Source: Acidobacteriota bacterium
Lineage (GTDB): Bacteria; Acidobacteriota; Terriglobia; Acidiferrales; UBA7541
NCBI GenBank assembly: GCA_021780215.1
Contig: JAJXZD010000174.1
Span: 3,286 to 67,285, forward strand
Direction of reading: 5' to 3'
Length of the DNA stretch: 64,000 nucleotides
Below the pieces are notes generated by a model. It worked only from the letters and a program-made list of their open reading frames with translations. It did not search any database and was not told the origin of the DNA. Every line of letters begins with the position of its first letter. Position 1 is the stretch's first letter. A program made the position numbers and the translations under genes. Positions 3,891 through 42,886 of this stretch are shown piece by piece.

Positions 3891-4556
3891 ATGCGGGCTA
3901 TCCGCGCACGCGCGCTCTCCTCGGCACGCCCTTCAGGTTGGGCTGCCCTTCTTGCATTCCGCGGCGCTTGGATGACTTGCTTGCTGGGCTTGGCCCTCTC
4001 CGCTGCTGGATGCCGCCACATTGCGCCGGTGGACACCGCTCCCCTTGACGCCATCGGCATGGGCTACGACGCAATTCAACAATTGCATGCGCTGCAAATC
4101 ACCCCTGCAGAGGTGGCGCAGATCGCCGAGATTCGCCGCACAGGTTTTTCCGACGACGATTGCATCGCCGTGATGAAAATTTACCGGCGGCACGGCGCTC
4201 CTTTTGATGGCGGCGATGCGATGACTGGCCTGGCGCAAGCCGGGATGGGCGACGATGACATCCTCGAGCTGGCCCGGCTGAATCAGCTTGGACTCGACTG
4301 GGGCGAGCTTCAGGCCATGCGCTTGGCCGGCCTCTCCGATCCCATCGTGCTCGAGGTGGCGCGCCACCATGCCGAGGGCAAGCCCGTCTTGGCCGGTGCC
4401 TCTCTTGCACGGCTGAAGAATGCCGGTATGCACAACGGGGCTCTACTGGATCTCGTGCAACACGGTGTTCCGGACTCGCAGGCCGCCGCAATCCTCTCCT
4501 ATCGCCGTCATGGGGTGAGCGATGCTCAAATCGTGCGCCACTTCACCGGCTCCTGA
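3891..4556 (+). CDS. Putative lipoprotein built from about five short helical repeats
   Basis: Lies inside ORF 3858-4556. The Met at 3891 gives a charged N-terminus, a hydrophobic core and the lipobox-like LSAAGC. The mature part repeats a pattern such as RRTGFSDDDCIAVMKIYRRHG / AQAGMGDDDILELARLNQLG / RLAGLSDPIVLEVARHHAEG. Confidence 0.5.
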   Translation: MRAIRARALSSARPSGWAALLAFRGAWMTCLLGLALSAAGCRHIAPVDTAPLDAIGMGYDAIQQLHALQITPAEVAQIAEIRRTGFSDDDCIAVMKIYRRHGAPFDGGDAMTGLAQAGMGDDDILELARLNQLGLDWGELQAMRLAGLSDPIVLEVARHHAEGKPVLAGASLARLKNAGMHNGALLDLVQHGVPDSQAAAILSYRRHGVSDAQIVRHFTGS

Positions 4557-27243: not shown

Positions 27244-28068
27244 TCACCCTTCCGCACGGGGTTTAACCGCGCGGATGAACGCACTCAAGAACTTTCCGTC
27301 CGCCTGCAAGCCAAGCGTGTCCGGATCGATCCCAGCGGTCGAGAAAAGCTCTCGCGCCTCCTCGACGCGGTAGATCCTCGTTGGTTCGACCGTGATCTGC
27401 TCGAAGCCGGCTGAGGCGAGTTTCCTCCGGTAGTCGTCCTCGTCCAAGGCGCCAGCCACGCACCCAATCCACAGCAGGATGCTTTCGCGGGCCTCGGGAG
27501 CCATTTCTCCGCGTGTGACCACATCGGAAACTGCGAACCGCCCGCCGGGCTTCAGCACTCGCCACGCCTCTCGCAGCGCACGGTCCTTGTCCGTGGAAAG
27601 ATTGATGACGCAATTCGAAATCACGGCATCCACGCTGTTATCCGGCAGGGGGATGTGTTCCAACTCGCCCTTGAGGAATTCCACGTTTCCCACGCCGGCC
27701 TTCTTTTTATTTTCGTTCGCCAGAGCCAGCATCTCGTCGGTCATATCCAAACCGTAGGCTTTACCGGTTGGCCCAATGCGCCGGGCCGAGAGGAGCACGT
27801 CAATGCCTCCGCCCGATCCAAGATCGAGCACGATATCCCCAGGGTTCAGTGCGGCGAGGGCCGTGGGATTGCCGCAGCCAAGCGACGCGCGGACGGCCGC
27901 TTCCGGGATTCCAGCCGTCTCGACATGATCGTAGAGTCCCGAGCTGATCGGATCGCTGCAGCTCGAATCGGACGCGGAGCCGCAACAGGGCTTCCTTCCG
28001 ACGCTCGCCTGGAGCGCCATCTCGGCATATTTTTTCCTGACCTGTTCTTTGAGTTCCGCATTTGCCAT
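27244..28068 (-). CDS. arsM: Arsenite S-adenosylmethionine methyltransferase-like protein
   Basis: 274 aa. It has an N-terminal Cys cluster ([14 protein letters not shown]), the SAM motif [11 protein letters not shown], and [10 protein letters not shown] containing the conserved Cys. Confidence 0.75.
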
Positions 28069-28154
28069 CGCGGTTCTCCCCTGCAGTTAAGACTAGCGCC
28101 CAACGATAAAAATGGCAAAGGAGGGCTTGTGGAGGTTCGCTTGCGAGCGATTCC

Positions 28155-29087
28155 TCAGCCTCGCACGGTCAGGACGGGGCAGGTAGCCTGGGTCACAATC
28201 CTGTACAGTGCGGACCGGTGGGATTTCTGCGCGAGCCGCGCCTTGGTGCTCGGCACTCCCAGGACGAGCATGTCCGCCCCATGCCCTTCGGCGACTTCGA
28301 GGACCTTTTCTCCGTGGGAACCGCGTTCAGCAACGCAAATAGGTTCAGAGCGAAGGTCGGCCCCAAAGGGAATCAGTTCCTGGAGGGTCTGCAGCATCGC
28401 GGATACCTCGGCGCCGTCTTCAATGCAATGGAAAAGGATCAGATTGGAGCGGTGTTCCCGGGCGAGTGAAATGGCATACGGCGCACCTGCCAGCGATTCA
28501 GGGCTGAAATCCGTGGCATAGAGAATCCGGGTGAGCCCGACGTGGCGAGCCGTCCTCGGAGAGACGTCGGGTCCGACCGTGAGCACGGGGCAGGGAGAAT
28601 TCCGAAAGATTTCCTCGGCGGCGGAGCCCAGGATGGCCTTTTGAAGCCCTTTGCGGCCGTGCGTGCTCAGAATGAGGAGGTCAATCTGCTTTTCAGCGAT
28701 AATTTCGGAAACGACCGGCCAGACTTCTCCAGCCCGGAAAATCAGCTCATGTGAAACTCCGGCTAGTTGCCTTTCGAGGACCTGCTGAGCCCGCTCCCGG
28801 TATTCCCGCTCCTGCTCGGCCATCGTGGCCCAGGCGGCGGGGGGCATAAGCGGAAGAAGTTCCGGCTGGATCACGTGCGCGGCGAAGAGCATGGCTCCGT
28901 AGCGCCGGGCAATGCCCATGGCGTAGGGAAGGGCGCGCTCTGCTGTGGAGGAGAGATCGGTCGCGTAGAGCAGATTCGCCAGCCGCAAGCGGCTCGTCGT
29001 GTCCAAAATCCTCATAGGATGCCTCGTGGAGGGGGCGCCCCCGGGGGTTGTGGGGGCGTTTGGTAAAGTCGTTCTCGGAGTTGCCAT
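28155..29087 (-). CDS. Tandem-domain universal stress protein (UspA family)
   Basis: There are two Usp domains. Each ends in G(S/T)HGR..LGS..E and CPVLTV. The ATG at 29087 (MATPRTT) has GGAGG 5 nt upstream and lies 13 nt after the groEL stop. Confidence 0.85.
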   Translation of the reverse strand: MATPRTTLPNAPTTPGGAPSTRHPMRILDTTSRLRLANLLYATDLSSTAERALPYAMGIARRYGAMLFAAHVIQPELLPLMPPAAWATMAEQEREYRERAQQVLERQLAGVSHELIFRAGEVWPVVSEIIAEKQIDLLILSTHGRKGLQKAILGSAAEEIFRNSPCPVLTVGPDVSPRTARHVGLTRILYATDFSPESLAGAPYAISLAREHRSNLILFHCIEDGAEVSAMLQTLQELIPFGADLRSEPICVAERGSHGEKVLEVAEGHGADMLVLGVPSTKARLAQKSHRSALYRIVTQATCPVLTVRG

Positions 29088-29100
29088 ATGGTCCTCCGCA

Positions 29101-30729
29101 TCATTCCGCCAGGGCAACCTCGCGGCCCTGTGCCTGGTCCGATTTGGGCTCGGGGATTTCAGTCAGAGTCGCCTCAGTTAGCAGCAGCACGCCGGCTACG
29201 GACACGGCATTCTCTAGCGCCATGCGGACGACCTTGGTCGGGTCAATGATGCCGGTTTTCACAAGGTCCACGTATTCGTTCCGGGAGGCGTCAAATCCAA
29301 AATTGCCCGTGCCGCTCTTCATCCGGTCTACGACCACACCCCCGTCGGCGCTCGAGTTTTCCGCGATCTGGCGCGTCGGCGCTTCGAGCGCCCGTCTGAG
29401 AATGCGGAGTCCCGTCTGCTCGTCGCCGGAGCATTCCGGCTCTGCGGCCTGCACCGCATCTATGGCGCGGAGCAGAGCTAGCCCTCCGCCGGGGACGATT
29501 CCCTCGGCCATGGCGGCCTTTGTGGAGCTGACGGCGTCCTCGAACGCTTCCTTCCGGTTTTTCAGCTCGGTTTCCGAGGGCGCTCCCACATGGATGACGG
29601 CGACGCCGCCGGCAAGCTTGGCCAAGCGTTCCTGGAGCTTTTCCTTGTCGTAATCGGAAGCAGTTTCCTCGATCTGCTTGCGAATTTCGTTGCAGCGGCC
29701 CTCGATGGACTGGCGGCTTCCCGCGCCCTGGATGATGGTCGTCTTTTCCCGGTCAATGAGCACGCGCTTGGCCTTGCCGAGCTCCCCGAGTTGGAGGCTC
29801 TCGATCTTCATGCCCAGCTCTTCGGCGAGCACTTTTCCGCCGGTAAGAATGGCGATGTCCTGCAAGATTTCCTTTCGGCGGTCGCCGAACCCCGGCGCTT
29901 TCACGGCCGCGGACAGCAGGACGCCGCGAATTTTGTTGACCACGAGAGTCGCCAGCGCTTCGCCCTCGACATCCTCGGCGATGATCAGAAGTGGCTGCGC
30001 GGCCTTGGCCACCTGTTCCAGGAAAGGAAGCAGGTCCTTGAGGCTGGTGATTCTCTTTTCATGGATCAGAATCAGCGGGTCCTCGAGGTTTACGGTCATT
30101 TTCTCGGGGTCGGTGATGAAGTAAGGAGAGAGATAGCCCCGGTCAAATTGCATTCCCTCGACCACTTCCAGAGAGGTCTCCGTCCCCTTCGCCTCGTCCA
30201 GAGTTACCACCCCGTCCTTGCCGACCTTTTCCATGGCGTCAGCCACCATTTCCCCAATGGCCGGGTCGTTGTGGGCCGAGACAGTGGCAATCTGCACTTT
30301 TTCCCAGCGGCTAAACACAGGACGCGAGAGCTTGTGCAGCGACTCGACCGACGCCCGCATTCCGCGTTCGAGGCCGCGCTTGAGTTCGATAGCGCTGGCG
30401 CCGGCAGCCACGTTGTGCAATCCCTCGGCGAAAATGGCATGTGCGAGGACGATGGAGGTCGTGGTGCCGTCGCCGACGGCATCGCCCGTGCGCTCCGCCG
30501 CTTCCCGCATCATTCTCGCGCCCAGATTCTCCTCGTGGTCGGTCAGCTCCACTTCCTTGGCAATCGTCACCCCGTCGTTGCTGACAATCGGCCGGCCCCA
30601 CTTCTTCTCGATCAGCACGCATTTGGACTTCGGCCCCAGGGTGACGCGCACGGCGTCGGCAAGGGCCGAGGCGCCCTTGAGAACCTTTTCCCGGGCAGCC
30701 GACTTGAACAACAACTGCTTGCTGGTCAT
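29101..30729 (-). CDS. groL: Chaperonin GroEL paralogue (no adjacent groES, no GGM tail)
   Basis: Internal ATG at 30729 ([19 protein letters not shown]). The hallmark [14 protein letters not shown] is present. The product is 542 aa and its C-terminus reads [19 protein letters not shown]. Confidence 0.9.
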
Positions 30730-30785
30730 GAACGTTCTCCGAATGCCGGTGCAAGTCAAAAGTAGCGAATGGAACCACGGGAAGG

Positions 30786-30801
30786 AATGATAGGTGTCAC
30801 C
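30786..30801. promoter_or_regulatory. CRP/FNR-type half-degenerate site AATGA-TAGGTG-TCACC (site A)
   Basis: Lies in the groEL/hsp20 divergent region. It shares the exact 13-mer TGATAGGTGTCAC with site C at 32697-32712. Confidence 0.35.
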
Positions 30802-30807
30802 GGCGTG

Positions 30808-30823
30808 TGTGATGCGCCTCACT
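30808..30823. promoter_or_regulatory. CRP-type site TGTGA-TGCGCC-TCACT (site B)
   Basis: Matches TGTGA-N6-TCACA at 9 of 10 positions. It lies 121-136 nt upstream of the hsp20 ATG. Confidence 0.4.
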
Positions 30824-30943
30824 GCCGCGCGCGGAGATGCCATTAACATGGATGTATATTCCCCACTGAAAAGCGGGTCTCCCCATGCTTGCAAGGCAGG
30901 CCGGCAGTGGCGGGCAGGCAGGGGGAGCGAAGGAGAAGTTGAA

Positions 30944-31471
30944 ATGAGCGAGAAATCCACTGCAGTACAAACGGCCCCAGCGGGCACTTCCCTTAGGGTT
31001 GTCGAACCCCAAACTCTTTTCGACCGAATCAATCGGTTGCACGACCGCATCGCGCGGCGCGCATTCGAAATTTTCGAGGGCGACGGCGGGTTTTTCGGCC
31101 GTGAACTCGACCACTGGTTCAAAGCAGAGAGAGAGCTGCTTCATCCGGTTCATTTGAACATTCGCGAGACGGACGACGAGCTGCGCGTGGAGGCCGAGGT
31201 CCCCGGATTCGAAGCGAAGGACCTCGAGGTCAGCATCGAGCCCCGGCGGCTCACCATCAGCGGAAAGAAGGAAACCACCAAGGAGCGTGGGGAAAAGGGA
31301 AAGGTTGTCTACGAGGAACAGCGCTCCAGCGAACTTCTTCGCATGGTGGATCTGCCGGCGGAAGTGGATGCGGCCCGGGCGACTGCCACGCTGAAGAATG
31401 GCGTCCTGGAACTCGCCCTGCCAAAGAGCTCGGCAGCGAAAAGCACGCGCGTGGGGGTAAAGGCGGCGTGA
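30944..31471 (+). CDS. Hsp20/alpha-crystallin small heat-shock protein
   Basis: The ATG at 30944 follows GGAGAAG. The alpha-crystallin domain reads [30 protein letters not shown]...[14 protein letters not shown]. Confidence 0.85.
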
Positions 31472-31656
31472 TGGCTAGCGGATTCCGCCGATTGGCAGTC
31501 GAGGATGGGCTCCATGGCAGGTAGCGCCGGGAGGTTCAAAGCGCGGGTGCCCGCGCACGTCCCGCAGGCGGCGCTGCGGGTTGCCGGAGTGGCGAGAGTC
31601 GCAGGACACTCGCGGAGCAGCGGCCGGCCCGCCCCGTCGGGCGAGCCTCGGCTTCC

Positions 31657-32628
31657 ATGATGCGGGTCGCGGTCATCACAAGCGGAGGAGACGCTCCGGG
31701 AATGAACGCGGGAATCCGGGCAGTAGTCCGGACTGCGGTCTCCCGGGGATGGGAAGTCCTGGGTGTGCGCCATGGCTACGCCGGGCTGGCCTGCGGCGAT
31801 TTTATTCCGCTGGGACGGCGCGACGTCAGCGGGGTGATCGGGCGGGGCGGCACGATGCTGGGCAGCACGCGGAGTCCAGCATTTTTGCTCGCGGAGACGC
31901 AGGAGCGGGCAATTCGTATCCTGCGCGAGCGCGCGGTTGACGCGGCGGTCGTCATTGGCGGAGACGGTTCACAGGCCGGGGCGTTGGCCCTCTGGCAAAG
32001 GGGCTTTCCCGTGGTGGGCGTCGCCTCCACCATTGACAACGATCTGCACGGCTCCGACATCACCATCGGCGTGGATACAGCGCTTAACATCGCGTTGGAA
32101 GCGATTGACCGGATCAAAGTCACTGCCTCTTCGCATGAACGCGCGTTCCTCGTCGAAGTGATGGGCAGGAACTGCGGGTATCTGGCCTTGATGTCTGGAA
32201 TCGCCGGCGGGGCAGAGTGCATCGTGCTGCCGGAGGTGAAGACCGATCCCGAAACCGTCGCGCGCGATTTGCGGGCGGCTTACGAGAGGGGCAAGGCCCA
32301 TGCCATTGTGGTCGTGGCCGAAGGAGCGCAGTACAACGCCGAGGGCTTGTCCAACTTTTTTCGCGAGCACAGCGAAAGGCTCGGTTTTGACTTAAGAGTG
32401 GTCAAGCTTGGGCACGTCCAGAGAGGCGGCGCGCCGGGAGTCTTCGATCGCGTGCTGGCCACCCGAATGGGCGCCGCGGCCACCGAAAGCATCCAGCAGG
32501 GCCGTTTCGGTGTGCTCATGGGGCTGATCGGAGGAGAAATCGCGGCCACCCCGCTTGCTGAAGTGGTTGGCAAAGAGCACCCTTTGGACATGAAGTTGGT
32601 GGACTTGGCTGCTGTCCTGGCGCAGTGA
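31657..32628 (+). CDS. pfkA: ATP-dependent 6-phosphofructokinase
   Basis: 323 aa. Contains VAVITSGGDAPGMNAGIR, VIGGDGS, TIDNDL and MGRNCGYLAL. Confidence 0.9.
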   Translation: MMRVAVITSGGDAPGMNAGIRAVVRTAVSRGWEVLGVRHGYAGLACGDFIPLGRRDVSGVIGRGGTMLGSTRSPAFLLAETQERAIRILRERAVDAAVVIGGDGSQAGALALWQRGFPVVGVASTIDNDLHGSDITIGVDTALNIALEAIDRIKVTASSHERAFLVEVMGRNCGYLALMSGIAGGAECIVLPEVKTDPETVARDLRAAYERGKAHAIVVVAEGAQYNAEGLSNFFREHSERLGFDLRVVKLGHVQRGGAPGVFDRVLATRMGAAATESIQQGRFGVLMGLIGGEIAATPLAEVVGKEHPLDMKLVDLAAVLAQ

Positions 32629-32696
32629 ATAAATGGATCGTTGCTTCTCCGGCCGGGCCACGGGTGTTGCGGGGATAGAGAGAAGGCTATTGGTGG

Positions 32697-32712
32697 TGTG
32701 ATAGGTGTCACT
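32697..32712. promoter_or_regulatory. CRP-type site TGTGA-TAGGTG-TCACT (site C)
   Basis: Matches the consensus at 9 of 10 positions. It lies 76-91 nt upstream of the second USP gene. Confidence 0.45.
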
Positions 32713-32787
32713 GGTTAGGGTGCGCGCAGGCACCGAGAAGCAGGTCAAACAGGACTAAACGTTAAGCAGCAGTAGCGGGAGACGAAC

Positions 32788-33681
32788 ATGGCAACGCCAA
32801 GCGCAAAGACAAGAGTTTCCCTGAGCAACATTCTCTACGCAACGGATTTCTCGTCCATTGCCGGCGCCGCTGTTCCCTACGCCGCTGAGATTGCCCGGCG
32901 CTACGGAGGCAGGGTTCATGCCGTACACGTCCGGTCGATACAGGCGTATGGTATCGCCCCGCCCGAGTCCTGGCCCGCGCTCAAGGAGGCGGCTGAGGTG
33001 CAGGCGAAAGAGGAGGCGGAGCGCCTCGACCGATTGTTCCAGGGGGTCGAGCACGATTCGACGGTCACCGAAGGCGATGTGTGGGAAGTGCTGTCGAGAT
33101 TGATTGACGAGAAGCACGCGGATCTCATCGTCATGGGAACGCATGGCCGCGAAGGCCTTGGCAAAATCCTGCTCGGGTCGGTTGCGGAGAATGTGCTTCG
33201 GCGAGCAGCGTGCCCGGTGCTGACGGTGGGGCCGCGCGTGCTCGTTAGCCCGGAGCGTGCTGTGGAGATGAAGCGGATTCTCTTCCCGACTGATTTTTCT
33301 GCCGCCTCCCAAGCCGCTGCGGCCTACGCCATATCGCTGGCGCAGGAAAACCAGGCCTATCTGGACCTCTTGCATGTAATTGAAAAGCGCAAGACGGGCG
33401 AACTTGTGCTTGCGCAGGAACTGGTGCCAGGAACTAAGGGGCGGATGCGCGCCCTTCTGCCGCCGGAGGCGGACCTGTGGTGCGAGCCGACCTATCTGGT
33501 TGAGGAGGGGGATCCCGCCGAGTCAATCCTGAAGACCGCCAAGGAGCATGGCGCGGACATGATTGTTCTGGGAGTGAAGCGCCTGCAAGGTGGGTTCAGC
33601 CCAGCGGCCCGTGCCCCATGGGCCACGGCGCACAAGATTATCGTTGGCGCTCCGTGCCCGGTGCTGACGGTTCACGGCTAA
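32788..33681 (+). CDS. Tandem-domain universal stress protein (UspA family)
   Basis: 297 aa. It has the same two-domain layout as the USP at 28155-29087. Shared segments include MATP..LSNILYATDFS, GTHGREGLGKILLGSVAE and CPVLTV. Confidence 0.9.
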   Translation: MATPSAKTRVSLSNILYATDFSSIAGAAVPYAAEIARRYGGRVHAVHVRSIQAYGIAPPESWPALKEAAEVQAKEEAERLDRLFQGVEHDSTVTEGDVWEVLSRLIDEKHADLIVMGTHGREGLGKILLGSVAENVLRRAACPVLTVGPRVLVSPERAVEMKRILFPTDFSAASQAAAAYAISLAQENQAYLDLLHVIEKRKTGELVLAQELVPGTKGRMRALLPPEADLWCEPTYLVEEGDPAESILKTAKEHGADMIVLGVKRLQGGFSPAARAPWATAHKIIVGAPCPVLTVHG

Positions 33682-33966
33682 CAAACTCGGACACTGGCTG
33701 CGGACGCGGCAGCAAGAGGACAACGCCTTGCCAAGCCTTGAACTCCGCAGAGGCCCCGCCCGCAGCCAGATTCGGCCAGGTCACGTCAGCTCCGTCTCGT
33801 GTAGGCTCCCGAAGGTGGACCCGTTTCTTGCTTCGATAATATCTTTCCTCTCCGCGGTTCACGGCCATAGAATTCCTTTTTGCCGGCCGCTTCCTGAAGC
33901 GGGCGACATGGAAATAATCCAATTCGCGAGTCCTCAAGAGTGATCCACCGCGCCTCATTGGAATGC

Positions 33967-36636
33967 ATGTTCAGCCCGAAATCTGTAGCCGTCATTGGGG
34001 CCACCGAGGCCGAGGGAAGCGTTGGCCGGACGCTCGTTCTGAATCTTCGTCAGGGAGGTTTTACCGGGCGCATTTATGCGGTGAATCCAAAACACAAGGA
34101 GGTATTGGGGCTACCCTGCCATGCTCGGATAGGCGACTTGCGGGGAGAGGTGGACCTAGCGGTGATTGCCACGCCTGCCGCGACAGTTCCGGGCGTCGTA
34201 GGCGAGTGCCTCGAAGCGGAAGTTCGCGGAGCGGTAGTGATCTCCGCGGGATTTCGGGAGCGAGGGCCGGAAGGGGCCGATTTGGAGAGGCAAATTCAGG
34301 AGCGCCTGCGCGGCGGGGCAATGCGTCTGGTCGGCCCGAATTGCCTGGGAATCATGATTCCGGGGATAGGCCTGAACGCGACCTTTGCGCACGACATGGG
34401 GCGGCCGGGGCGCATTGCCTTCCTGAGCCAGAGCGGGGCGCTGGAGACGGCGATTCTCGATTGGAGTATCGGGGAGCGCGTGGGCTTCAGCGCAATCGTT
34501 TCCACCGGCTCAATGGTCGATGTGGGCTGGGGCGACTTGATTGACTACTTCGCAGGCGATCCGGACACCCAGGCCATCTTGTTGTACATGGAGTCCGTGG
34601 GCGACGCGCGCTTGTTTCTTTCCGCCGCGCGAGAAGCGGCGCTCCGAAAGCCCATTCTGGTGATCAAGGCGGGCCGCTCCGAAGTTGCTGCCCGCGCGGC
34701 CGCCTCCCATACCGGGGCAATGACGGGAAGCGACGAGGTGTTCGATGCCGCGCTCCGCCGCTGCGGCGTTCTGCGCGTGCAAAGTATCAGCGATCTCTTC
34801 CATCTGGCGGAAACGCTGGCTCGCCAGCCACGGCCAGCCGGGCCGAAGCTGACCATCGTGACGAATGCGGGCGGCCCGGCCGTGCTGGCCACGGATGCCC
34901 TGATTGCGGGTGGCGGGGAACTGGCCCCGCTGCCGGAAGCCTCGGTAAATGCACTCAGCGAGTTCCTGTCCCCGCACTGGAGCCATGCAAACCCGATTGA
35001 CGTGCTGGGAGACGCTGGCTCGGAGGAATATGCCCGGACACTCGACGTTGCGATCCGCGACCCGCAGAGCGACGGTCTGCTGGCCATTTTGGCGCCGCAA
35101 GGGATGACTGACCCCGCGGAGGTGGCCAATAAGCTGAAGCCCTATGCGCGCGGATTCGGAAAACCGATTCTTGCCAGTTGGATGGGCGGCAAGCTGATGG
35201 CGCGCGGAGTAGAAATTCTGAACGAGGCCGGGATTCCAACTTTCGCCTACGCCGACACGGCGGCGCGAGCCTTCTGCTACATGTGGCGCTACAGCGACAA
35301 TCTCCGCGCCTTATACGAAACGCCCAGTTTTGGAGAGGATGTGGAGGGAGGCAACGCCCCGGGGCTGGAAGCGCGGGAGATTCTGGAAGAAGTCCGCGCC
35401 GGCCGCCGTACGATCCTCAGCGAAATTGAATCGAAGCGTGTGCTGGCCCTGTATGGAATTCCGGTCGTCGAAACGCACCGTGCGCAATCCCCGGACGAGG
35501 CGGTGGCAAAGGCGCGAGCCTGCGGTTTCCCGGTTGTTCTGAAGGTGTTTTCCGAGTTCATCACCCATAAGACGGAGGCTGGCGGCGTCAAGCTGAGTTT
35601 GGCGGACGAGGATGCCGTGCGCCGAGCCTATGCCGGGATCGAGCAGTCGGTTCGGGAAAGAGCCGGGGCGGACAAGTTCCAGGGAGTTTCAGTGCAGCGC
35701 ATGGTGCGTATGGAGGGCTATGAGCTGATCATCGGCAGCAGCGTGGATTCGCAGTTTGGGCCGGTGATTCTGTTTGGTTCTGGCGGCCAACTCGTGGAGG
35801 TTTACCGGGACCGCGCCCTGGCGCTTCCTCCTCTCAATGCCACTTTGGCACAGCGGCTGATTGAACGGACCCGTGTCTATCGGGCGCTGCAGGGCGTGCG
35901 AGGACGTGCCGCCGTGAATCTCGACGAGTTGAAGCTGATCTTGGTCCGGTTCAGCCGTCTGCTTGCGGAGCAGCCGTGGATCAAGGAAGTGGACGTGAAT
36001 CCGCTGCTCGCCTCACCCGGGGGAATTGTCGCCCTCGACGCGCGCATCGTCCTTCATTCTCCGGAGACCCTCCCGGAGACGCTGCCGCGACTGGCGATCC
36101 GGCCGTATCCGATGCGCTACGTTGGCCAGTGGACGATGAAAAACGGAGATACGGTGGTGATCCGTCCGATTCGTCCAGAGGACGAGCCGCTCATGGTGAA
36201 ATTTCACCAGGCGCTCTCCGACCGCAGCGTCTATCTTCGCTATTTCCATATGATGCGGCTCAGCGCGCGCGTCTCCCACGAGCGAATGATCCAACGATGC
36301 TTCGTTGACTACGACCGGGAGATCGCCCTGGTTGCCGACTTTGAGGACCCACGGACTTCCGCCCACGAGATTCTGGCGGTCGGCCGCCTGACCAAGCTGC
36401 CCGGCGAGCAGGAGGCGGAGGTGGGAGTGATCGTTCGCGACGACCGTCAGAAACAGGGCCTCGGCGTGGAAATGCTCCGCCGGCTGATCGAGGTGGCCCG
36501 GCATGAGAAAGTGGGACGCATTGTGGCGCATACTCTTCCCGAAAACCTGGAGATGCGGTCTCTGGCAGAACGGTTCGGATTTCAGGTTCGCAAGACGGAG
36601 GAGATGGACACGGTCGTGGCGGTCCTCGACTTATAG
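33967..36636 (+). CDS. Pat/YfiQ-type protein lysine acetyltransferase (NDP-forming acyl-CoA synthetase-like N-terminus plus C-terminal GNAT)
   Basis: Contains a CoA-binding segment (SVAVIGATEAEGSVG), succinyl-CoA-synthetase-like and ATP-grasp-like segments, and a C-terminal GNAT (RDDRQKQGLGVEMLRRLIEVAR). I prefer the start at 33967 (MFSPKSVAVIGA). The track ORF starts at a GTG at 33940. Confidence 0.85.
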   Translation: MFSPKSVAVIGATEAEGSVGRTLVLNLRQGGFTGRIYAVNPKHKEVLGLPCHARIGDLRGEVDLAVIATPAATVPGVVGECLEAEVRGAVVISAGFRERGPEGADLERQIQERLRGGAMRLVGPNCLGIMIPGIGLNATFAHDMGRPGRIAFLSQSGALETAILDWSIGERVGFSAIVSTGSMVDVGWGDLIDYFAGDPDTQAILLYMESVGDARLFLSAAREAALRKPILVIKAGRSEVAARAAASHTGAMTGSDEVFDAALRRCGVLRVQSISDLFHLAETLARQPRPAGPKLTIVTNAGGPAVLATDALIAGGGELAPLPEASVNALSEFLSPHWSHANPIDVLGDAGSEEYARTLDVAIRDPQSDGLLAILAPQGMTDPAEVANKLKPYARGFGKPILASWMGGKLMARGVEILNEAGIPTFAYADTAARAFCYMWRYSDNLRALYETPSFGEDVEGGNAPGLEAREILEEVRAGRRTILSEIESKRVLALYGIPVVETHRAQSPDEAVAKARACGFPVVLKVFSEFITHKTEAGGVKLSLADEDAVRRAYAGIEQSVRERAGADKFQGVSVQRMVRMEGYELIIGSSVDSQFGPVILFGSGGQLVEVYRDRALALPPLNATLAQRLIERTRVYRALQGVRGRAAVNLDELKLILVRFSRLLAEQPWIKEVDVNPLLASPGGIVALDARIVLHSPETLPETLPRLAIRPYPMRYVGQWTMKNGDTVVIRPIRPEDEPLMVKFHQALSDRSVYLRYFHMMRLSARVSHERMIQRCFVDYDREIALVADFEDPRTSAHEILAVGRLTKLPGEQEAEVGVIVRDDRQKQGLGVEMLRRLIEVARHEKVGRIVAHTLPENLEMRSLAERFGFQVRKTEEMDTVVAVLDL

Positions 36637-36685
36637 GACGGGCAGGGCGACGTGTCCCGCGAAGGACAATCCGTGGCAGGCGGAG

Positions 36686-36940
36686 TCAGGCCGCGGCAAT
36701 CACGCGGGGTTTCGTGCGTGGGGGAGCCTGCTGCGTCCAATCCATCAGCACGATTCCGGCATTGTTCCGGTATTCGAGCCAATAGCGGCGCGAGCAGGGG
36801 CCGCACAGCCAGAAGTGCTGGACAGAATGGAGGTTGGCTTCCGGATCGCCTTCGCTTTGCTGTTTATGGAACCGGAAGAATGTCCCCTGGTGATAATCGA
36901 AGTTCGCTCCGCAGATTGGGTTGGCACATTTTGAAAACAT
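36686..36940 (-). CDS. Small zinc-ribbon protein (84 aa), unknown function
   Basis: Internal ATG at 36940. The sequence MFSKCANPICGANF...HFWLCGPCSRRY contains CxxC..CxxC. It is divergent from the eRF1-like gene. Confidence 0.5.
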   Translation of the reverse strand: MFSKCANPICGANFDYHQGTFFRFHKQQSEGDPEANLHSVQHFWLCGPCSRRYWLEYRNNAGIVLMDWTQQAPPRTKPRVIAAA

Positions 36941-37042
36941 GATCTCCCCCGTCGCGGTCCGCACCATTCGACAGAAAAACCGAATAGTGAGATGCATAAT
37001 CCAGGGGAAAGGTTGAAATCAAGAGGCGATGTCACATAATAC

Positions 37043-37058
37043 TGTGATCAGGATCATA
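37043..37058. promoter_or_regulatory. CRP-type site TGTGA-TCAGGA-TCATA (site D)
   Basis: Matches the consensus at 9 of 10 positions. It lies in the divergent region between the zinc-ribbon gene and the eRF1-like gene. Confidence 0.4.
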
Positions 37059-37083
37059 CGGTCGCGACCAGTGTGAGAGTACG

Positions 37084-38319
37084 GTGCCGATAGATTCCTC
37101 GAGGGCACGGCTGCACCAGCGGACCGGCTCTCGTGTCGCGACCGAAAGGGGACGGCCCGTGGAGATTGCCTTACTGCAAGAGAAGCTTTCCCAAACCTCG
37201 GAACCAATGCTCACCCTGTATATGGACACCAACCCGCCCGACCGCAGCAGCCATGGGCGAACTCCCGCATATCTTGCCTGGCTGAAGAAGGAAATGAAGC
37301 ATGTGGCGAGCGGCGTGCCTCCGTCGGAGCTGCAATCCTTTCAGGAGCAGATGCGCCGGACGGAGCGGTCGCTGCGCGACATGACGCCCCGTGAGCGCGG
37401 GATTGTCGTCTTCGCCGGCCCGACGACCTGGATCCGCATGTCTCTCCCGCAGGCCTTCGCCAATCAGCTTCAATGGGGCCGGCCGGCACTTGAGCAGTTG
37501 CTCGGAATCGCCACGGGGCGGAAGAACTCCTGCGTAGTAGCGATAGACCGAGCTGGAGCACGTTTCTTCCGGGGAGAAGACGGGGACATGGCTGAACTTC
37601 CCGAGGAGAGATTCGAAATTGACGCTTCGCAGTGGAAGCAGAAGGATCTGGGGCACATGGCGCCGCGAGATACGCACATGCCGCACGGGCCTCAGCGCGA
37701 TCTCTACAAGCGCCGGGTGGATGAGCAATACCGCCGCCTGTGCAAGCACGTGGCGGACCGTACGCGTGCGCTTTGTAGCAAGGAGCTGCCGGCAGCGATT
37801 TTTCTGGTTGGCTCTAGAAAACTCACAGAACTGATCGAGGGGGGACTGCCGACGGATTTGCGCGAGCGCGTCGAGACGATCGTCGAAAACCTGGCGCGGG
37901 TGCCGCCCGAGGATCTGGAACGCCATCTGGGTCCTAGAATGGCCGAGTGGACTTGGGATTTTGCAAAGAGACGCGCGGGCCAGTTGATTGAAGCGGAGCG
38001 CGGAGCGGTGACCGGTCTCGATGAAACTTTGGCCGAGTTGCAAAAGGGAAACATCCGAAGCGTGCTGGTCGTCCGGGGCTTCGACGCCACGCTGCGGCAA
38101 TGCACCAACTGCGGAGCGGTGGGGCGCTCAGCGGATCCGGCCTGCCCCGTGTGCGGTGGAGAGAGGCGGGAAGTAAAGCTCGGCGAAATCCTGCCGGTGC
38201 TGGCGCGGGACCGGAATACCATTCTTGAGGTTCTCGATCGGGAGCCAGCGAAGAAGCTCGTCGAGGCTGGCGGAATCGGCGGCTGGCTCCGTCCCGCACA
38301 GCCAAAGAGGGCGAGATAA
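37084..38319 (+). CDS. Bacterial archaeo-eukaryotic release-factor-like protein (baeRF1/eRF1-Pelota-Vms1 fold) with a C-terminal zinc-ribbon insert
   Basis: The three-domain pattern was recognised by eye: LTLYMDTNP at the N-terminus, VVAIDRAGARFF in the central domain, and the loop HMPHGPQRD with GPQ in the GGQ position (37687-37695). The C-terminal domain carries CTNCGAVGRSADPACPVCGG. The true start may be the GTG at 37159, which has AAGGGGA upstream. Confidence 0.6.
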   Translation: MPIDSSRARLHQRTGSRVATERGRPVEIALLQEKLSQTSEPMLTLYMDTNPPDRSSHGRTPAYLAWLKKEMKHVASGVPPSELQSFQEQMRRTERSLRDMTPRERGIVVFAGPTTWIRMSLPQAFANQLQWGRPALEQLLGIATGRKNSCVVAIDRAGARFFRGEDGDMAELPEERFEIDASQWKQKDLGHMAPRDTHMPHGPQRDLYKRRVDEQYRRLCKHVADRTRALCSKELPAAIFLVGSRKLTELIEGGLPTDLRERVETIVENLARVPPEDLERHLGPRMAEWTWDFAKRRAGQLIEAERGAVTGLDETLAELQKGNIRSVLVVRGFDATLRQCTNCGAVGRSADPACPVCGGERREVKLGEILPVLARDRNTILEVLDREPAKKLVEAGGIGGWLRPAQPKRAR

Positions 38320-38375
38320 AGGCGACCGCATGGATTTCGGGGTAGGATGCAAGCGCAGTGGGCCTCACACCAGGA

Positions 38376-38391
38376 GGTGACCTAGGTCACT
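38376..38391. promoter_or_regulatory. CRP-type site GGTGA-CCTAGG-TCACT containing the perfect 14-bp palindrome GTGACCTAGGTCAC (site E)
   Basis: Matches the consensus at 8 of 10 positions with perfect dyad symmetry. It lies in a 385-bp gap with no annotated gene, upstream of the ACD-like gene. Confidence 0.4.
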
Positions 38392-38704
38392 GAAAGGCTG
38401 CCGGAGCGGCGTGATCCTCTTTTTGGGGAGAGTCGAGCGCATCGCGTCCGGCTAGCATCCCGGTTCAGGCGGCGGTCGAACGACGCGCGAAGTCTCCAGT
38501 GCCCTTGAAAGAAGGGGCGTCCAACATGATGAGAAAGCTGGCAACACCAAGGAGAAAGCGCAAGGCCGGCGTGAGCGTGAAAAGGCGGCATGCAAGGCCG
38601 CGAGTGCGAGGGAAGCAACTTTCGAAACTCGAGTTGACCAACTACCTACTCGAGAATCATCCGGAAATCGGTTCTTAGGGCGCTTCCGAAAGGGCGAACT
38701 GCGA

Positions 38705-39199
38705 ATGGAAGGCAGAGCAGCCAATGCGGGCACAGGTGGAGTCGGCTTCGCAAAGGTGACGGTTGGCGATGCCGCTCAATGCGAACAGCGCCTCTCCGCC
38801 GCTATCGCCCGGCGCGCCGAGGAAATTGCCCGGCATCGCGGGGCGTCCGCTGGCGACGCTGCGGAAGACCGGCGGCTTGCGGAGAAGGACATTGTGCGTC
38901 CCTTTTGCGGCGGCATCTTGGAATCCAAGGAAGGATTCACCGTTTCGCTGTGCAGGTCGAGTTTTGCCCCGGAGGAAATCGAGGTGTGCGCCGAGCCCCG
39001 GCGTTTGATCGTAATCGAGATGAAGAAGACCCCTGCGGAAGCGAGCGAGCGACCCACGGTTTTTCGGGTTCTGCCTTTGCACCGCGAGTGCGATCCTTCC
39101 TCGCTGGCCATCCATAGGCGGGGCTCCATCTTCGAACTCGAGTTGCACAATCCACCGGTCTCGAAGGAACAGAGGTACGCCGCGCGCGGCAAGCCATGA
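38705..39199 (+). CDS. Hypothetical protein with a possible alpha-crystallin-like C-terminal domain
   Basis: 164 aa. The C-terminal part (FTVSLCRSSFAPEEIEVCAEPRRLIVIEMKK..VFRVLPLHRECDPSSLAIHRRGSIFELELH) resembles the Hsp20 strand pattern. The competing minus-strand ORFs are R/P/S-rich. Confidence 0.4.
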   Translation: MEGRAANAGTGGVGFAKVTVGDAAQCEQRLSAAIARRAEEIARHRGASAGDAAEDRRLAEKDIVRPFCGGILESKEGFTVSLCRSSFAPEEIEVCAEPRRLIVIEMKKTPAEASERPTVFRVLPLHRECDPSSLAIHRRGSIFELELHNPPVSKEQRYAARGKP

Positions 39200-39364
39200 T
39201 ACTTTTCTGCGGCAGGATGCCGCGCGTCCGGCAAATCCGTTTGCGGCTCTTCGGGGAGTGAGGCACAATAAACGCATGCGGAGCAGCAAGCTGGGTTTCG
39301 GGCCAGCCGCGGCCGCAAATTGAGGCGCGCCTGGCCAGGGATTCTACAGGCAAAAGGAGGCTGG

Positions 39365-39754
39365 ATGCTGATCAGCAAGCAGTCCATATCCTCGGGCGTT
39401 TCGCATTTGAGCAGGAAAGCCTGGCTTCGGGGCATTGGGGGGTTAGGAATCATAGCGTTGGCGATTGCCATGCCGGTTTCGCTGGCGAAGGGCGCAACCG
39501 ACGAGGCCGGGAAGTCGTTGTTCAAGGCGAACTGTGCCGTCTGCCATGGGGATGACGGAACCGGCACGGCAACGGGCAGGGCATTGAACGCTCCTGATTT
39601 GCATTCGGAGGCCGTCCAGAAGTTGACGGACGCCCAGATTGCAGATCAGATCAACAGCGGAAAGAACAACATGCCCCCGTTCCGGAACTCGCTGAGCCAG
39701 GCGCAAGTGAAAGAGCTTGTCTCTTTTGTCCGCACTTTCGGCAAGAAGAAGTAG
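39365..39754 (+). CDS. Secreted class-I c-type cytochrome
   Basis: The ATG at 39365 follows AAAGGAGG. It has a signal peptide, a CAVCHG motif and the distal segment NNMPPF. Confidence 0.8.
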   Translation: MLISKQSISSGVSHLSRKAWLRGIGGLGIIALAIAMPVSLAKGATDEAGKSLFKANCAVCHGDDGTGTATGRALNAPDLHSEAVQKLTDAQIADQINSGKNNMPPFRNSLSQAQVKELVSFVRTFGKKK

Positions 39755-41677: not shown

Positions 41678-42886
41678 TTACAGCACGCGTTCATGGGGGT
41701 AGCCTGCCGCATCGAGAGCGGTCGTAAGTTCGTCCACCTGGTCGGGGCCGCGGGTTTCCATCGTGATGTCAATCACGGTATCTCCGAGGACCACTCCGTA
41801 GTAGGCCCGGTCGTAGTTGGTTTCGACGATGTTGGCCTTGTGATCTGCGATCACCGTCGCCAGCCTGGCCAGGGCGCCGGGGTGGTCCGGCAGATGGATT
41901 CGCAGCCGCACCAGGCGGCCATCCTGGACCAAGCCGCGCTCGATGATGCGTGACAGTAGCGAGACATCAATGTTTCCACCGCCCACGAAGACTCCGATGC
42001 GCTTGCCCCGATGCGGAATCTTGTGCCGAACAACGGCGGCCGTGGCCACTGCGCCGGCGCCTTCCGTGAGCGTCTTTTCCTTTTCGAGGAGCAGGAGGAT
42101 GGCGTTGGCGATCTCTTCGTCTTCCACGGTGACGATGTCGTCCACGTACTTCTGCACCATCGGCAAGGTGAGGTCTCCGGCGCGCCGGACCGCGATGCCG
42201 TCCGCGATCGTCATTTTGGCGGGCAGCGTGACGGGGGCCTTGCTCTCAAGCGCCGCCTTCATGGAAGGGAGTTTCGAGGTCTGCACGCCGATCACCTGCA
42301 CCTTTGGATTGATCTCCTTGACGGCGCAGGCTACCCCGGCAATCAACCCTCCTCCACCCACCGGGACAACGAAAACCTCGATATCCGGCTGCTGTTGCAG
42401 CATCTCGATGCCTGCGGTGCCCTGGCCGGCAATGACCGCTTCGTCGTCAAACGGATGGATGAATGTGAGATGTTGCTCGGAGCAGCGGCGCAGCGCCTCT
42501 TCGCACGCCTCATCGTAATTTGCGCCGCAGAGAATCACTTCGGCGCCGTAGTCCCGCGTGGCGGACACTTTGACGAGGGGAGTCGTCAGCGGCATGCAGA
42601 TCTGCGCCGCGATGCCGCGCTTGGACGAGTGGTACGCGACGGCCTGCGCGTGATTGCCGGCCGACGCGGCGATCACGCCGCGCCGTCGCTCCTCTTCAGA
42701 GAGCAGGAGAATCTTGTTGAGCGCTCCGCGCTCCTTGAAGGCGCCGGTCATTTGCAGGTTATCCAGCTTGAAATAGACCGAATTCCCGGTGAGCTTCGAG
42801 AAGGTCTCGGAGCGCATGAAGGGGGAGAGAAAGACGGAATCGCGGATTCGTTCCGTGGCCTTCCGAATTGATTCGAGAGTCACCAT
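41678..42886 (-). CDS. ilvA: Threonine ammonia-lyase (threonine dehydratase) with a C-terminal ACT-like domain
   Basis: Internal ATG at 42886 (MVTLESIRKA). The PLP lysine motif is TGAFKERGA. SAGNHAQ and GGGGL are also present. Confidence 0.85.
   Translation of the reverse strand: MVTLESIRKATERIRDSVFLSPFMRSETFSKLTGNSVYFKLDNLQMTGAFKERGALNKILLLSEEERRRGVIAASAGNHAQAVAYHSSKRGIAAQICMPLTTPLVKVSATRDYGAEVILCGANYDEACEEALRRCSEQHLTFIHPFDDEAVIAGQGTAGIEMLQQQPDIEVFVVPVGGGGLIAGVACAVKEINPKVQVIGVQTSKLPSMKAALESKAPVTLPAKMTIADGIAVRRAGDLTLPMVQKYVDDIVTVEDEEIANAILLLLEKEKTLTEGAGAVATAAVVRHKIPHRGKRIGVFVGGGNIDVSLLSRIIERGLVQDGRLVRLRIHLPDHPGALARLATVIADHKANIVETNYDRAYYGVVLGDTVIDITMETRGPDQVDELTTALDAAGYPHERVL

Follow-up and report, generated by a model that had tools for sequence, protein, structure and literature searches.

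Positions 27,244 to 39,754 of a 64,000-nucleotide stretch of genomic DNA from an Acidobacteriota bacterium (hereinafter, the window) hold a compact island of genes that encode universal stress proteins (USPs), chaperones, a phosphofructokinase (PFK), a Pat-type protein acetyltransferase and a remote homologue of the Balon family of ribosome hibernation factors. On the strength of the shared operators described here, this island is probably a dense node of a regulon controlled by the Crp/Fnr family of transcription factors and likely to act as an energy- or oxygen-limitation programme. An earlier note on this DNA had compared the island with the DosR (DevR) dormancy regulon of Mycobacterium tuberculosis, to which some of these kinds of parts presumably belong, and had proposed that the genes form a co-regulated module. 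Co-regulation of the genes is indeed very probable: an operator common to them recurs across lineages. Family scans and BLASTP searches recovered all eleven genes where the note had placed them; the following list adds one short open reading frame (ORF). The identities of the window genes come from scans of the Pfam and NCBIfam families on high-GC DNA with many spurious ORFs. Throughout, C denotes contigs of this genome (G000), L denotes related loci, and G, other genomes of the same genus.

27244..28068, minus strand: ArsM arsenite methyltransferase (NCBIfam NF008823, 342 bits, cut-off 263; Pfam Methyltransf_31)
28155..29117, minus strand: USP1, tandem-domain universal stress protein (Pfam Usp, two stretches, E=2.7e-41)
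29101..30729, minus strand: GroEL2, second GroEL paralogue, 542 amino acids (TIGR02348, 760 bits, cut-off 582)
30944..31471, plus strand: Hsp20/alpha-crystallin protein with N-terminal DUF2934 (Pfam HSP20 E=2.3e-18, DUF2934 E=9e-9)
31657..32628, plus strand: ATP-dependent 6-phosphofructokinase, PfkA type (Pfam PFK E=3.8e-102; NF002872, 389 bits, cut-off 253)
32788..33681, plus strand: USP2, tandem-domain universal stress protein (Pfam Usp, two stretches, E=2.4e-58)
33940..36636, plus strand: Pat-type protein acetyltransferase (Pfam CoA_binding_2, Succ_CoA_lig, Ligase_CoA_2, ATP-grasp_5, Acetyltransf_3/1)
36686..36940, minus strand: small four-Cys (zinc-ribbon-like) protein (CxxxxC...CxxC), divergent from the Balon-type gene
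37159..38319, plus strand: baeRF family 10 protein (Balon-type, aeRF1-like), 386 amino acids (Pfam PF18854, 46.7 bits, cut-off 27.1)
38526..38678, plus strand: small basic ORF of 50 codons, extremely Arg/Lys-rich (tblastn conservation; an addition to the earlier gene list)
38705..39199, plus strand: ACD-like protein, divergent Hsp20 paralogue (BLASTP against the island Hsp20, E=2e-10, 27% identity over 144 amino acids)
39320..39754, plus strand: mono-haem c-type cytochrome (Pfam Cytochrome_CBB3 E=2.4e-16)

Five sites that resemble the palindrome TGTGA-N6-TCACA are found between these genes.

30786..30801, AATGATAGGTGTCACC: operator O1, facing GroEL, weaker than 9/10 matches
30808..30823, TGTGATGCGCCTCACT: operator O2, facing Hsp20, 9/10 matches to TGTGA-N6-TCACA
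32697..32712, TGTGATAGGTGTCACT: operator O3, 77 nucleotides 5' of USP2, at least 9/10 matches
37043..37058, TGTGATCAGGATCATA: operator O4, between the zinc-ribbon-like gene and the Balon-type gene, 9/10 matches
38376..38391, GGTGACCTAGGTCACT: operator O5, with a perfect 14-bp palindrome inside, weaker than 9/10 matches

The three sites with at least 9/10 matches in the window (at 30808, 32697 and 37043) all lie in intergenic DNA of the island, where they are accompanied by the two weaker ones (30786 and 38376); O1 and O2 are 22 bp apart. The intergenic DNA of the island, about 1.6 kb altogether, contains three operators with the exact core GTGA-N6-TCAC compared to approximately 0.2 expected from the genome-wide intergenic density, and with these three sites in 7.6 kb, the island shares the first place among the operator clusters of the genome by density. 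A search for further copies and for the regulator, as the earlier note had suggested, yielded 43 exact cores in 355 kb of intergenic DNA, compared to 0-3 at each of the other spacings from 3 to 10, with the consensus cTGTGAY-N4-RTCACAg, as well as a candidate regulator, CrpA. The operator is real, yet not restricted to the island, which is not self-contained but one node of a regulon that has at least 43 operators. The signal is clear only because coding and intergenic DNA were counted separately: with coding DNA included, the whole genome contains 49 sites with at least 9/10 matches to TGTGA-N6-TCACA, against a shuffled expectation of 37-54, and inside genes codon periodicity makes spacings 3 and 9 of the exact core common as well. 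A generic repeat search over 24-43 kb of the window detected the paralogy of the USPs only and not the operator. Scans for terminators and promoters stayed at the chance level, so the operon boundaries are inferred from spacing only, and no sigma-54 promoter was found 5' of crpA or in the island.

The position of the operators relative to putative promoters is non-random. A TANNNT hexamer begins 29-31 nucleotides from the operator centre in 11 of the 61 target-side windows, compared to about 0.5 at each of the other offsets, and a -10 hexamer at that offset is expected when a Crp/Fnr dimer is centred at -41.5, that is, in class II activation. As judged from hexamer spacing, a location of the operators near -41.5 fits statistically. 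In the island, -10-like hexamers are found about 30 nucleotides from the centres of O2 (TAACAT, plus strand, towards Hsp20), O1 (TACTTT, minus strand, towards GroEL) and O4 (TACGGT, towards the Balon-type gene). Most promoters of the orthologues of the latter gene have a -10-like hexamer at +30, or at +52 if a second site lies 22 bp 3' of the first one. Pairs of operators exactly 22 bp apart recur elsewhere in the genome (C37:6074/6096, C123:13074/13096, C159:10701/10723, in addition to 30786/30808 in the window) and in the related loci L040-L043, L048 and L054; some of these pairs serve two divergent promoters, and others are a distal and a proximal site in tandem, at about -63.5 and -41.5.

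We next compared the island with 24 distinct loci around baeRF orthologues, with up to 10 kb of flanking sequence on each side and tblastn searches for the neighbours; the baeRF homologues, with 38-81% identity, come from assemblies designated Acidobacteriota, Terriglobia or 'Ca. Acidiferrales'. The same kinds of genes cluster within 10 kb of the baeRF orthologue in these loci, in shuffled order: USPs in 13 of the 24 loci, Hsp20 in 7, PFK and cytochrome c in 5 each, Pat, the zinc-ribbon gene, the ACD-like gene and Crp/Fnr genes in 4 each, and GroEL in 2. For comparison, about five USP loci in 3 Mb, as in this genome, place a USP in approximately 3% of random 20-kb windows, and the clustering exceeds chance. 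The 435 kb around the 24 Balon orthologues contain 68 core sites compared to 1-14 at other spacings, about six times the whole-genome density, and the sites are found 5' of 16 of the 24 Balon genes, 12 of 21 USP genes, 6 of 7 Hsp20 genes, 4 of 5 PFK genes, both GroEL genes and all four zinc-ribbon genes, but of none of the 5 aminotransferase and 3 PALP genes in the same flanks. The sites 5' of the Balon orthologues are often tandem, 22 bp apart. An equivalent of O5 is present 3' of the Balon gene in L034, L039, L042 and L043.

Gene order is shuffled among the lineages, with the operators remaining between the units. Thus, the order is operator-Hsp20-operator-USP-Pat-ZnR-operator-baeRF-operator-cytochrome c (ZnR, zinc-ribbon gene) in L042 and L043; baeRF, PFK, GroEL, operators, USP, USP in L049; and USP, operators, baeRF ... 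Hsp20, operator, GroEL-USP in L035. Pfam maps of seven loci add to this repertoire cytochrome bd, a fusion of HPF with a cold-shock domain (HPF-CSD) directly after baeRF, phosphoribosyltransferases, a CBS protein, a P-type ATPase, trehalose synthesis genes, phosphoketolase and PEP-utilising enzymes.

Closer to home, among 26 genomes of the genus, baeRF-10 is present in 2, the PfkA-type PFK in 3, Pat in 16 and CrpA in 18, so that, rather than being scattered in close relatives, the island genes are mostly absent and, where present, clustered. In the three genomes that have the PFK, it is always within the module: next to Pat-USP in G151, for example, and in G160 in the order baeRF ... ArsM-PFK-Hsp20, operator, USP. 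The ArsM copy in G160 is 71% identical to that in the island, and given this recurrence, ArsM is not an accidental neighbour. In all ten Pat loci that were compared within the genus (L063-L072, that is, G151, G155, G157, G158, G161, G166, G170, G171, G173 and G191), the order is operator, tandem USP, Pat; an operator also precedes the USP-Pat pair in L042 and L043. The zinc-ribbon gene and/or an operator and crpA come after USP-Pat in ten genus loci, and in 6 of the 10, a CrpA-type gene with its own 5' operator lies within about 5 kb of USP-Pat, in three cases directly after Pat. In the genome analysed here, the zinc-ribbon and Balon-type genes occupy the position that is held by crpA in the relatives. 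Given the order that is kept in ten of ten loci, operator-USP-Pat(-crpA) is the stable core of the system, and Balon, PFK, GroEL2 and ArsM are patchy accessory cargo.

Three genes of the Crp/Fnr family (PF13545 matches) are present in the genome. One of the proteins has the FNR-type recognition helix, E-x-x-S-R. CrpA (C186:7157-7876) and its paralogue on C123, 61% identical to it, have instead a C-x2-C-x8-C motif at the N-terminus and the helix S/T-R-E-T-V-T-R, which follows the pattern by which CRP recognises TGTGA. Among 18 CrpA homologues (61-79% identity), RETVTR and five cysteines (C13, C16, C25, C64 and C148) are invariant. The closest relative with a solved structure is the M. tuberculosis CRP, in which SRETVNKAL aligns with TRETVTRTL of CrpA, and the cAMP phosphate-binding PRTSSA aligns with PYEVTA, the phosphate-binding arginine being gone. 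Alignments of CrpA with solved FNR structures start at residue 12, within the cysteine motif, and those with CRP start at residue 43. The crpA genes adjoin a Balon gene (L040) or a USP gene (C186), or directly follow USP-Pat (in the relatives from the same genus). We infer from these features that CrpA binds the TGTGAY-N4-RTCACA operators and senses O2, NO or the redox state via its cysteines rather than cAMP. With most of the operators located about 41.5 nucleotides 5' of the predicted transcription start, CrpA is probably a class II activator.

Two further observations concern this family of regulators. The crpA gene is part of a cassette (C186:3842-8898) that comprises, in this order, the FNR-type (E-x-x-S-R) Crp/Fnr gene, a PAS-PAS sigma-54 activator gene, crpA itself and a third tandem USP gene with an operator; PAS and sigma-54 activator genes are also neighbours of Balon, USP or Crp genes in L035, L036 and L040. 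Separately, the FNR-type core TTGA-N6-TCAA is found at 10 intergenic sites in the genome, compared to 0-4 at other spacings, and at none in the island; the protein with the E-x-x-S-R helix may thus control another regulon, of smaller size.

Annotation of 50 genes that flank other operators gives an outline of the wider regulon. Among these are the third tandem USP, beside crpA, so that all three tandem USPs of the genome are behind an operator; the HPF(S30AE)-CSD fusion, a PAS hybrid kinase and a ferredoxin; cytochrome oxidase subunit II, an NrfD-type subunit, and multi-haem and mono-haem cytochromes; RIC/ScdA-hemerythrin, another hemerythrin and NnrS; H+-pyrophosphatase, glycogen synthase and cyclopropane-fatty-acid synthase; beta-oxidation enzymes and three AMP-forming acyl-CoA synthetases; and KdpA, thioredoxin, and ArsR- and MarR-type regulators. 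Judging by these predicted functions, this appears to be a regulon of respiration, NO/O2 repair and energy economy, of which the cluster in the window would be the stress and hibernation node. One of the other sites, a perfect TGTGACCCAGGTCACA operator in the stretch C121:16756-21232, lies between the gene for an AMP-forming acyl-CoA synthetase and a cytochrome c gene; beside the former is a gene for a second NDP-forming acyl-CoA-synthetase-like protein that is 35% identical to Pat and lacks the GNAT domain. In the literature searched, we found nothing on this regulon, or on Balon together with USPs, in Acidobacteria, and the main text of a study of an acidobacterial low-O2 transcriptome (PMC8407424) does not include these genes.

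The baeRF-10 protein had been described in the earlier note as a translation-rescue factor and an integral part of the module, with a parallel in Rv2629. The parallel is real: a profile of 25 sequences of the family matches Balon MSMEG_1130 (PDB 8v9j_z) with E=4.8e-14, over positions 42-378 of 386, and Rv2629 (8v9k_z) with E=2.8e-4, and for this profile, the Balon structures score ahead of or level with the archaeal and eukaryotic RF1. The protein is thus a remote full-length homologue of the Balon hibernation factors, although it scores far under the NCBIfam equivalog cut-offs for the MSMEG_1130 and Rv2629 families (37.7 vs 480 and 35.7 vs 320 bits, respectively). Translation is inhibited by Balon, MSMEG_1130 and Rv2629, all of which sit in the A site of the ribosome, as Helena-Bueno et al. 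(2024) showed; the same study placed Balon genes in stress operons, often beside RaiA or Hsp20 (PMC10901736). The baeRF-10 protein shares with the solved Balons the aeRF1-like full-length homology and the Hsp20 and, in relatives, HPF-type neighbours, and differs from them by an invariant four-Cys zinc ribbon, as in archaeal aRF1, and by a conserved loop glutamine. Specifically, in the G-x-Q-R-D loop (HGPQRD), G177 is invariant and Q179 is retained in most of the 25 homologues; when aligned to aRF1, Q179 sits two residues past the glutamine of GGQ, the catalytic motif that, like NIKS, is lost in Balon-type factors. The C-terminus has the sequence GGIGGWLR. Burroughs and Aravind considered it possible that family 10 keeps a peptidyl-hydrolase activity, and reported HPF genes in the vicinity of several of the baeRF families (PMC6514570). 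Because of the homology to Balon, a hibernation factor is nevertheless more likely than a rescue hydrolase and is the better-supported reading despite the G-x-Q loop. The claim of integral membership stands, then, with operators 5' of most of the orthologues, and the rescue role gives way to the likelier Balon-type hibernation. Conserved operators of the CRP type 5' of a Balon gene are not described in the literature that we searched. The HPF (S30AE)-cold-shock-domain fusion is encoded in this genome at C35:4431-5168, with an operator at 4355, and in L040 (9256-9903), directly 3' of the Balon orthologue, in turn preceded by a Crp/Fnr gene.

These observations can be combined into a scheme in which CrpA binds the operators and activates transcription in the class II arrangement, with a second site 22 bp further 5' at some promoters. 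Five units would be switched on together, namely, GroEL2-USP1-ArsM; Hsp20(-PFK); USP2-Pat; the zinc-ribbon gene along with the divergent Balon gene; and the small basic ORF, the ACD-like gene and cytochrome c. The signal would be limitation of oxygen, redox or NO, as suggested by the cysteines, the missing cAMP site and the content of the regulon. The outputs can be surmised from what is known of the respective families: ribosomes would be parked by the Balon-type factor and HPF, proteins would be held by Hsp20, the ACD-like protein and GroEL2, glycolysis, through PFK, would supply ATP, and the USP-Pat acetylation pair would reset enzyme activity. Going further, and only tentatively, we can envisage a previously undescribed global switch of many Acidobacteriota, in which sensing by FNR-like cysteines (as an Fe-S cluster or as thiols) is combined with DNA recognition of the CRP type, and which activates a dormancy programme convergent with that of DosR upon exhaustion of oxygen or redox energy; in such a switch, the baeRF-10 protein would be Balon-like but endowed with peptidyl-tRNA hydrolase activity, both clearing and parking ribosomes, and USP-Pat would act as an ATP-sensing acetylation switch.

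Several observations weigh against the scheme of an oxygen- or redox-responsive activator. The attribution of the operators to CrpA comes from the logic of the recognition helix and from gene adjacency. The N-terminal 58 residues of CrpA alone retrieve no solved FNR structure, and the C-x2-C-x8-C spacing is unlike that of E. coli FNR, and for both reasons, an Fe-S cluster in CrpA is only a candidate. Starvation for carbon or energy would account for the beta-oxidation enzymes, acyl-CoA synthetases and glycogen synthase no less well than hypoxia. Among the 24 Balon orthologues, 8 have no operator within 400 nucleotides, and several are without stress genes nearby. No recognisable -10 hexamer is found at the class II distance from O3 and O5, and a sigma-70-like promoter ends 3 nucleotides before O4, which could also be its repressor site. 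Finally, the genes outside the window were called with a crude caller of our own and are approximate.

Some of these points agree with a cAMP-CRP carbon-starvation regulon, in which cAMP, not oxygen or redox, turns the module on via the same operator and regulator. This is, in our estimate, rather unlikely. Among proteins of solved structure, CrpA is indeed closest to the M. tuberculosis CRP and to other CRPs that bind cAMP, the operator has the consensus sequence of CRP sites, the regulon includes the beta-oxidation genes, glycogen synthase and all three AMP-forming acyl-CoA synthetases, and Pat-type acetyltransferases are tied to cAMP in other bacteria (PMC8556138). However, CrpA has Tyr-Glu in place of the Arg-Thr pair that binds phosphate in the cAMP pocket, and its five cysteines are invariant; the search of the 93%-complete genome for class III adenylate cyclase (PF00211), the only cyclase class that was searched for, gave no match; and the regulon also contains RIC/ScdA, NnrS, hemerythrins, COX2 and cytochromes. 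Another scenario, with CrpA keeping the module off and stress de-repressing it, appears improbable for the module as a whole. The sigma-70-like promoter next to O4 (TTGAAA-16-CATAAT, window 37013-37040, plus strand, 10/12 matches) is kept in L034, the 81% orthologous locus, and would start transcription within the operator, a hint that the Balon gene is under dual control; together with the lack of -10 hexamers at O3 and O5, this makes repression possible at some promoters. Yet, the peak of -10-like hexamers at the class II distance (11/61) is significant, most of the Balon orthologue promoters have this distance (or the one extended by 22), and Crp/Fnr proteins in such geometry are established activators.

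The remaining two alternatives do not involve the Crp/Fnr family. It is very improbable, in our view, that the island is a cluster for heat shock or for proteotoxic stress in general, or that its genes are neighbours by chance, with no common control. Its GroEL and two small-HSP-like genes are what such a cluster would contain, but the sole CIRCE element of the genome (C217:5899, 17/18 matches) is elsewhere, 5' of the canonical groES-groEL; accordingly, control of the island GroEL by CIRCE/HrcA was considered and rejected, this gene having CRP-type sites instead. A chance neighbourhood is excluded by the enrichment of operators and by their conservation, with the neighbours recurring in shuffled order across lineages. 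Least credible of all would be a DosR-type dormancy regulon homologous to the mycobacterial one. DosR is a response regulator of the NarL type that works in a two-component system with the haem-GAF kinases DosS/DosT, its regulon being induced by hypoxia, NO or CO, and its box has the core GGGAC-N4-GTCCC. No match to this box at 9/10 or better was found in the island, where the 8/10 matches are coding sequence or the CRP-type operator itself, and there is one exact copy in the genome; the intergenic regions carry the CRP-type operator instead. Furthermore, the PFK is of the PfkA rather than the PfkB type, and the Balon homologue belongs to family 10, with the low equivalog scores noted above. 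What favours such homology is the similar repertoire: tandem USPs, alpha-crystallin, PFK, a Balon-family protein (Rv2629), an HPF/RaiA-type protein (Rv0079) and ferredoxin are shared with the DosR regulon (PMC8044303, PMC10901736). This parallel goes beyond the parts listed in the earlier note and, in the related loci, takes in the CBS protein, the P-type ATPase and phosphoribosyltransferases. The resemblance noticed in the earlier note thus holds for gene content and not for membership, and appears to be a case of analogy or convergence.

Comparison with these and other known systems brings out the specific features of the predicted regulon. Compared to the DosR regulon, it employs a Crp/Fnr-type regulator with the TGTGA-N6-TCACA operator, PfkA, and baeRF-10 with the zinc ribbon and the G-x-Q loop, and includes GroEL2, Pat, ArsM and cytochrome c as extra components; the common theme would likely be survival without growth under limitation of O2 or NO. 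With E. coli FNR and CRP, M. tuberculosis CRP Rv3676 and Cmr, it shares the TGA-N6-TCA palindrome, the class II (-41.5) geometry, the R-E-x-x-x-R recognition helix, and respiratory and stress targets. Unlike these, CrpA joins an FNR-like Cys-rich N-terminus (C-x2-C-x8-C, with C64 and C148) to CRP-type specificity, without the cAMP phosphate-binding pair, and tandem sites exactly 22 bp apart recur. In mycobacteria, one of the Crp/Fnr proteins, Cmr, responds to redox conditions and has an input into DosR (PMC5499769), and the cAMP-regulated Pat (MSMEG_5458/Rv0998) acetylates a USP (PMC8556138). Both there and here, the acetyltransferase is tied to a USP and a cNMP-domain regulator; here, USP-Pat is behind a CRP-type operator and often followed by the regulator gene, Pat has a large NDP-forming acyl-CoA-synthetase-like N-terminal region and no cAMP-binding domain, and the link is known from gene order and predicted transcription.

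Acidobacteriota rank among the most abundant bacteria in soils, and most of them grow slowly or are uncultured. For their persistence during anoxia and starvation, the present analysis offers a concrete candidate regulon, with an operator consensus, a putative sensor-regulator and about 50 target genes including a Balon-type factor, in which ribosome hibernation, chaperones, glycolysis and protein acetylation would be wired to one switch. An independent, non-actinobacterial Balon homologue in a dormancy-like regulon supports the general role that has been proposed for Balon, and baeRF-10 is a family in which the choice between a hydrolase and a hibernation function can be made.

With regard to the individual genes of the island, GroEL2 is stand-alone, as the earlier note had it: there is no adjoining groES, no GGM tail and no CIRCE, and the genome's sole groES is on C217, beside a canonical groEL that is 59% identical to GroEL2. 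USP1 is directly 3' of GroEL2, in a unit of which ArsM is the last gene; the longest USP1 ORF overlaps the GroEL stop codon, the real start being probably near 29006, and a GroEL-USP pair is found also in L035. GAAGGAG precedes the ATG of Hsp20. Two minus-strand ORFs (31309-31773 and 31776-32222) have gene-like GC3 but overlap PFK and belong to no family, and so were rejected. The first domain of USP2 contains the ATP-binding motif G-2x-G-9x-GS, GTHGREGLGKILLGS. Pat, with about 890 amino acids, has the class I architecture of an NDP-forming acyl-CoA-synthetase-like region and a C-terminal GNAT domain. The small four-Cys protein has no family match in the Pfam and NCBIfam scans, and its gene is kept beside Pat and Balon in L034, L039, L042 and L043 and in the loci of the genus.

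The small basic ORF lies about 150 nucleotides 3' of O5 and has full-length tblastn matches 3' of the Balon gene in L034 (72%), L039 (46%, where it is called as a 49-aa gene), L042 (47%) and L043 (44%); its product may be a ribosome- or nucleic-acid-binding protein. The ACD-like protein has no Pfam HSP20 match and a weak DUF2934 match; its homologues adjoin Balon in L034 and L041, and Pat in G161. The likely start of cytochrome c is the ATG at 39365, behind AAGGAGG; this gene is 3' of Balon in L034, L038, L039, L042 and L043, with an operator of its own in none of these five loci. The base composition is even across the window, so the stretch bears no mark of recently acquired DNA. Outside the island, exact GTGA-N6-TCAC cores are found at position 41762 of the window, L034:7252 and L039:14016, each within the 3' part of a PALP/ACT (threonine-dehydratase-like) gene, where they probably are merely conserved coding sequence.

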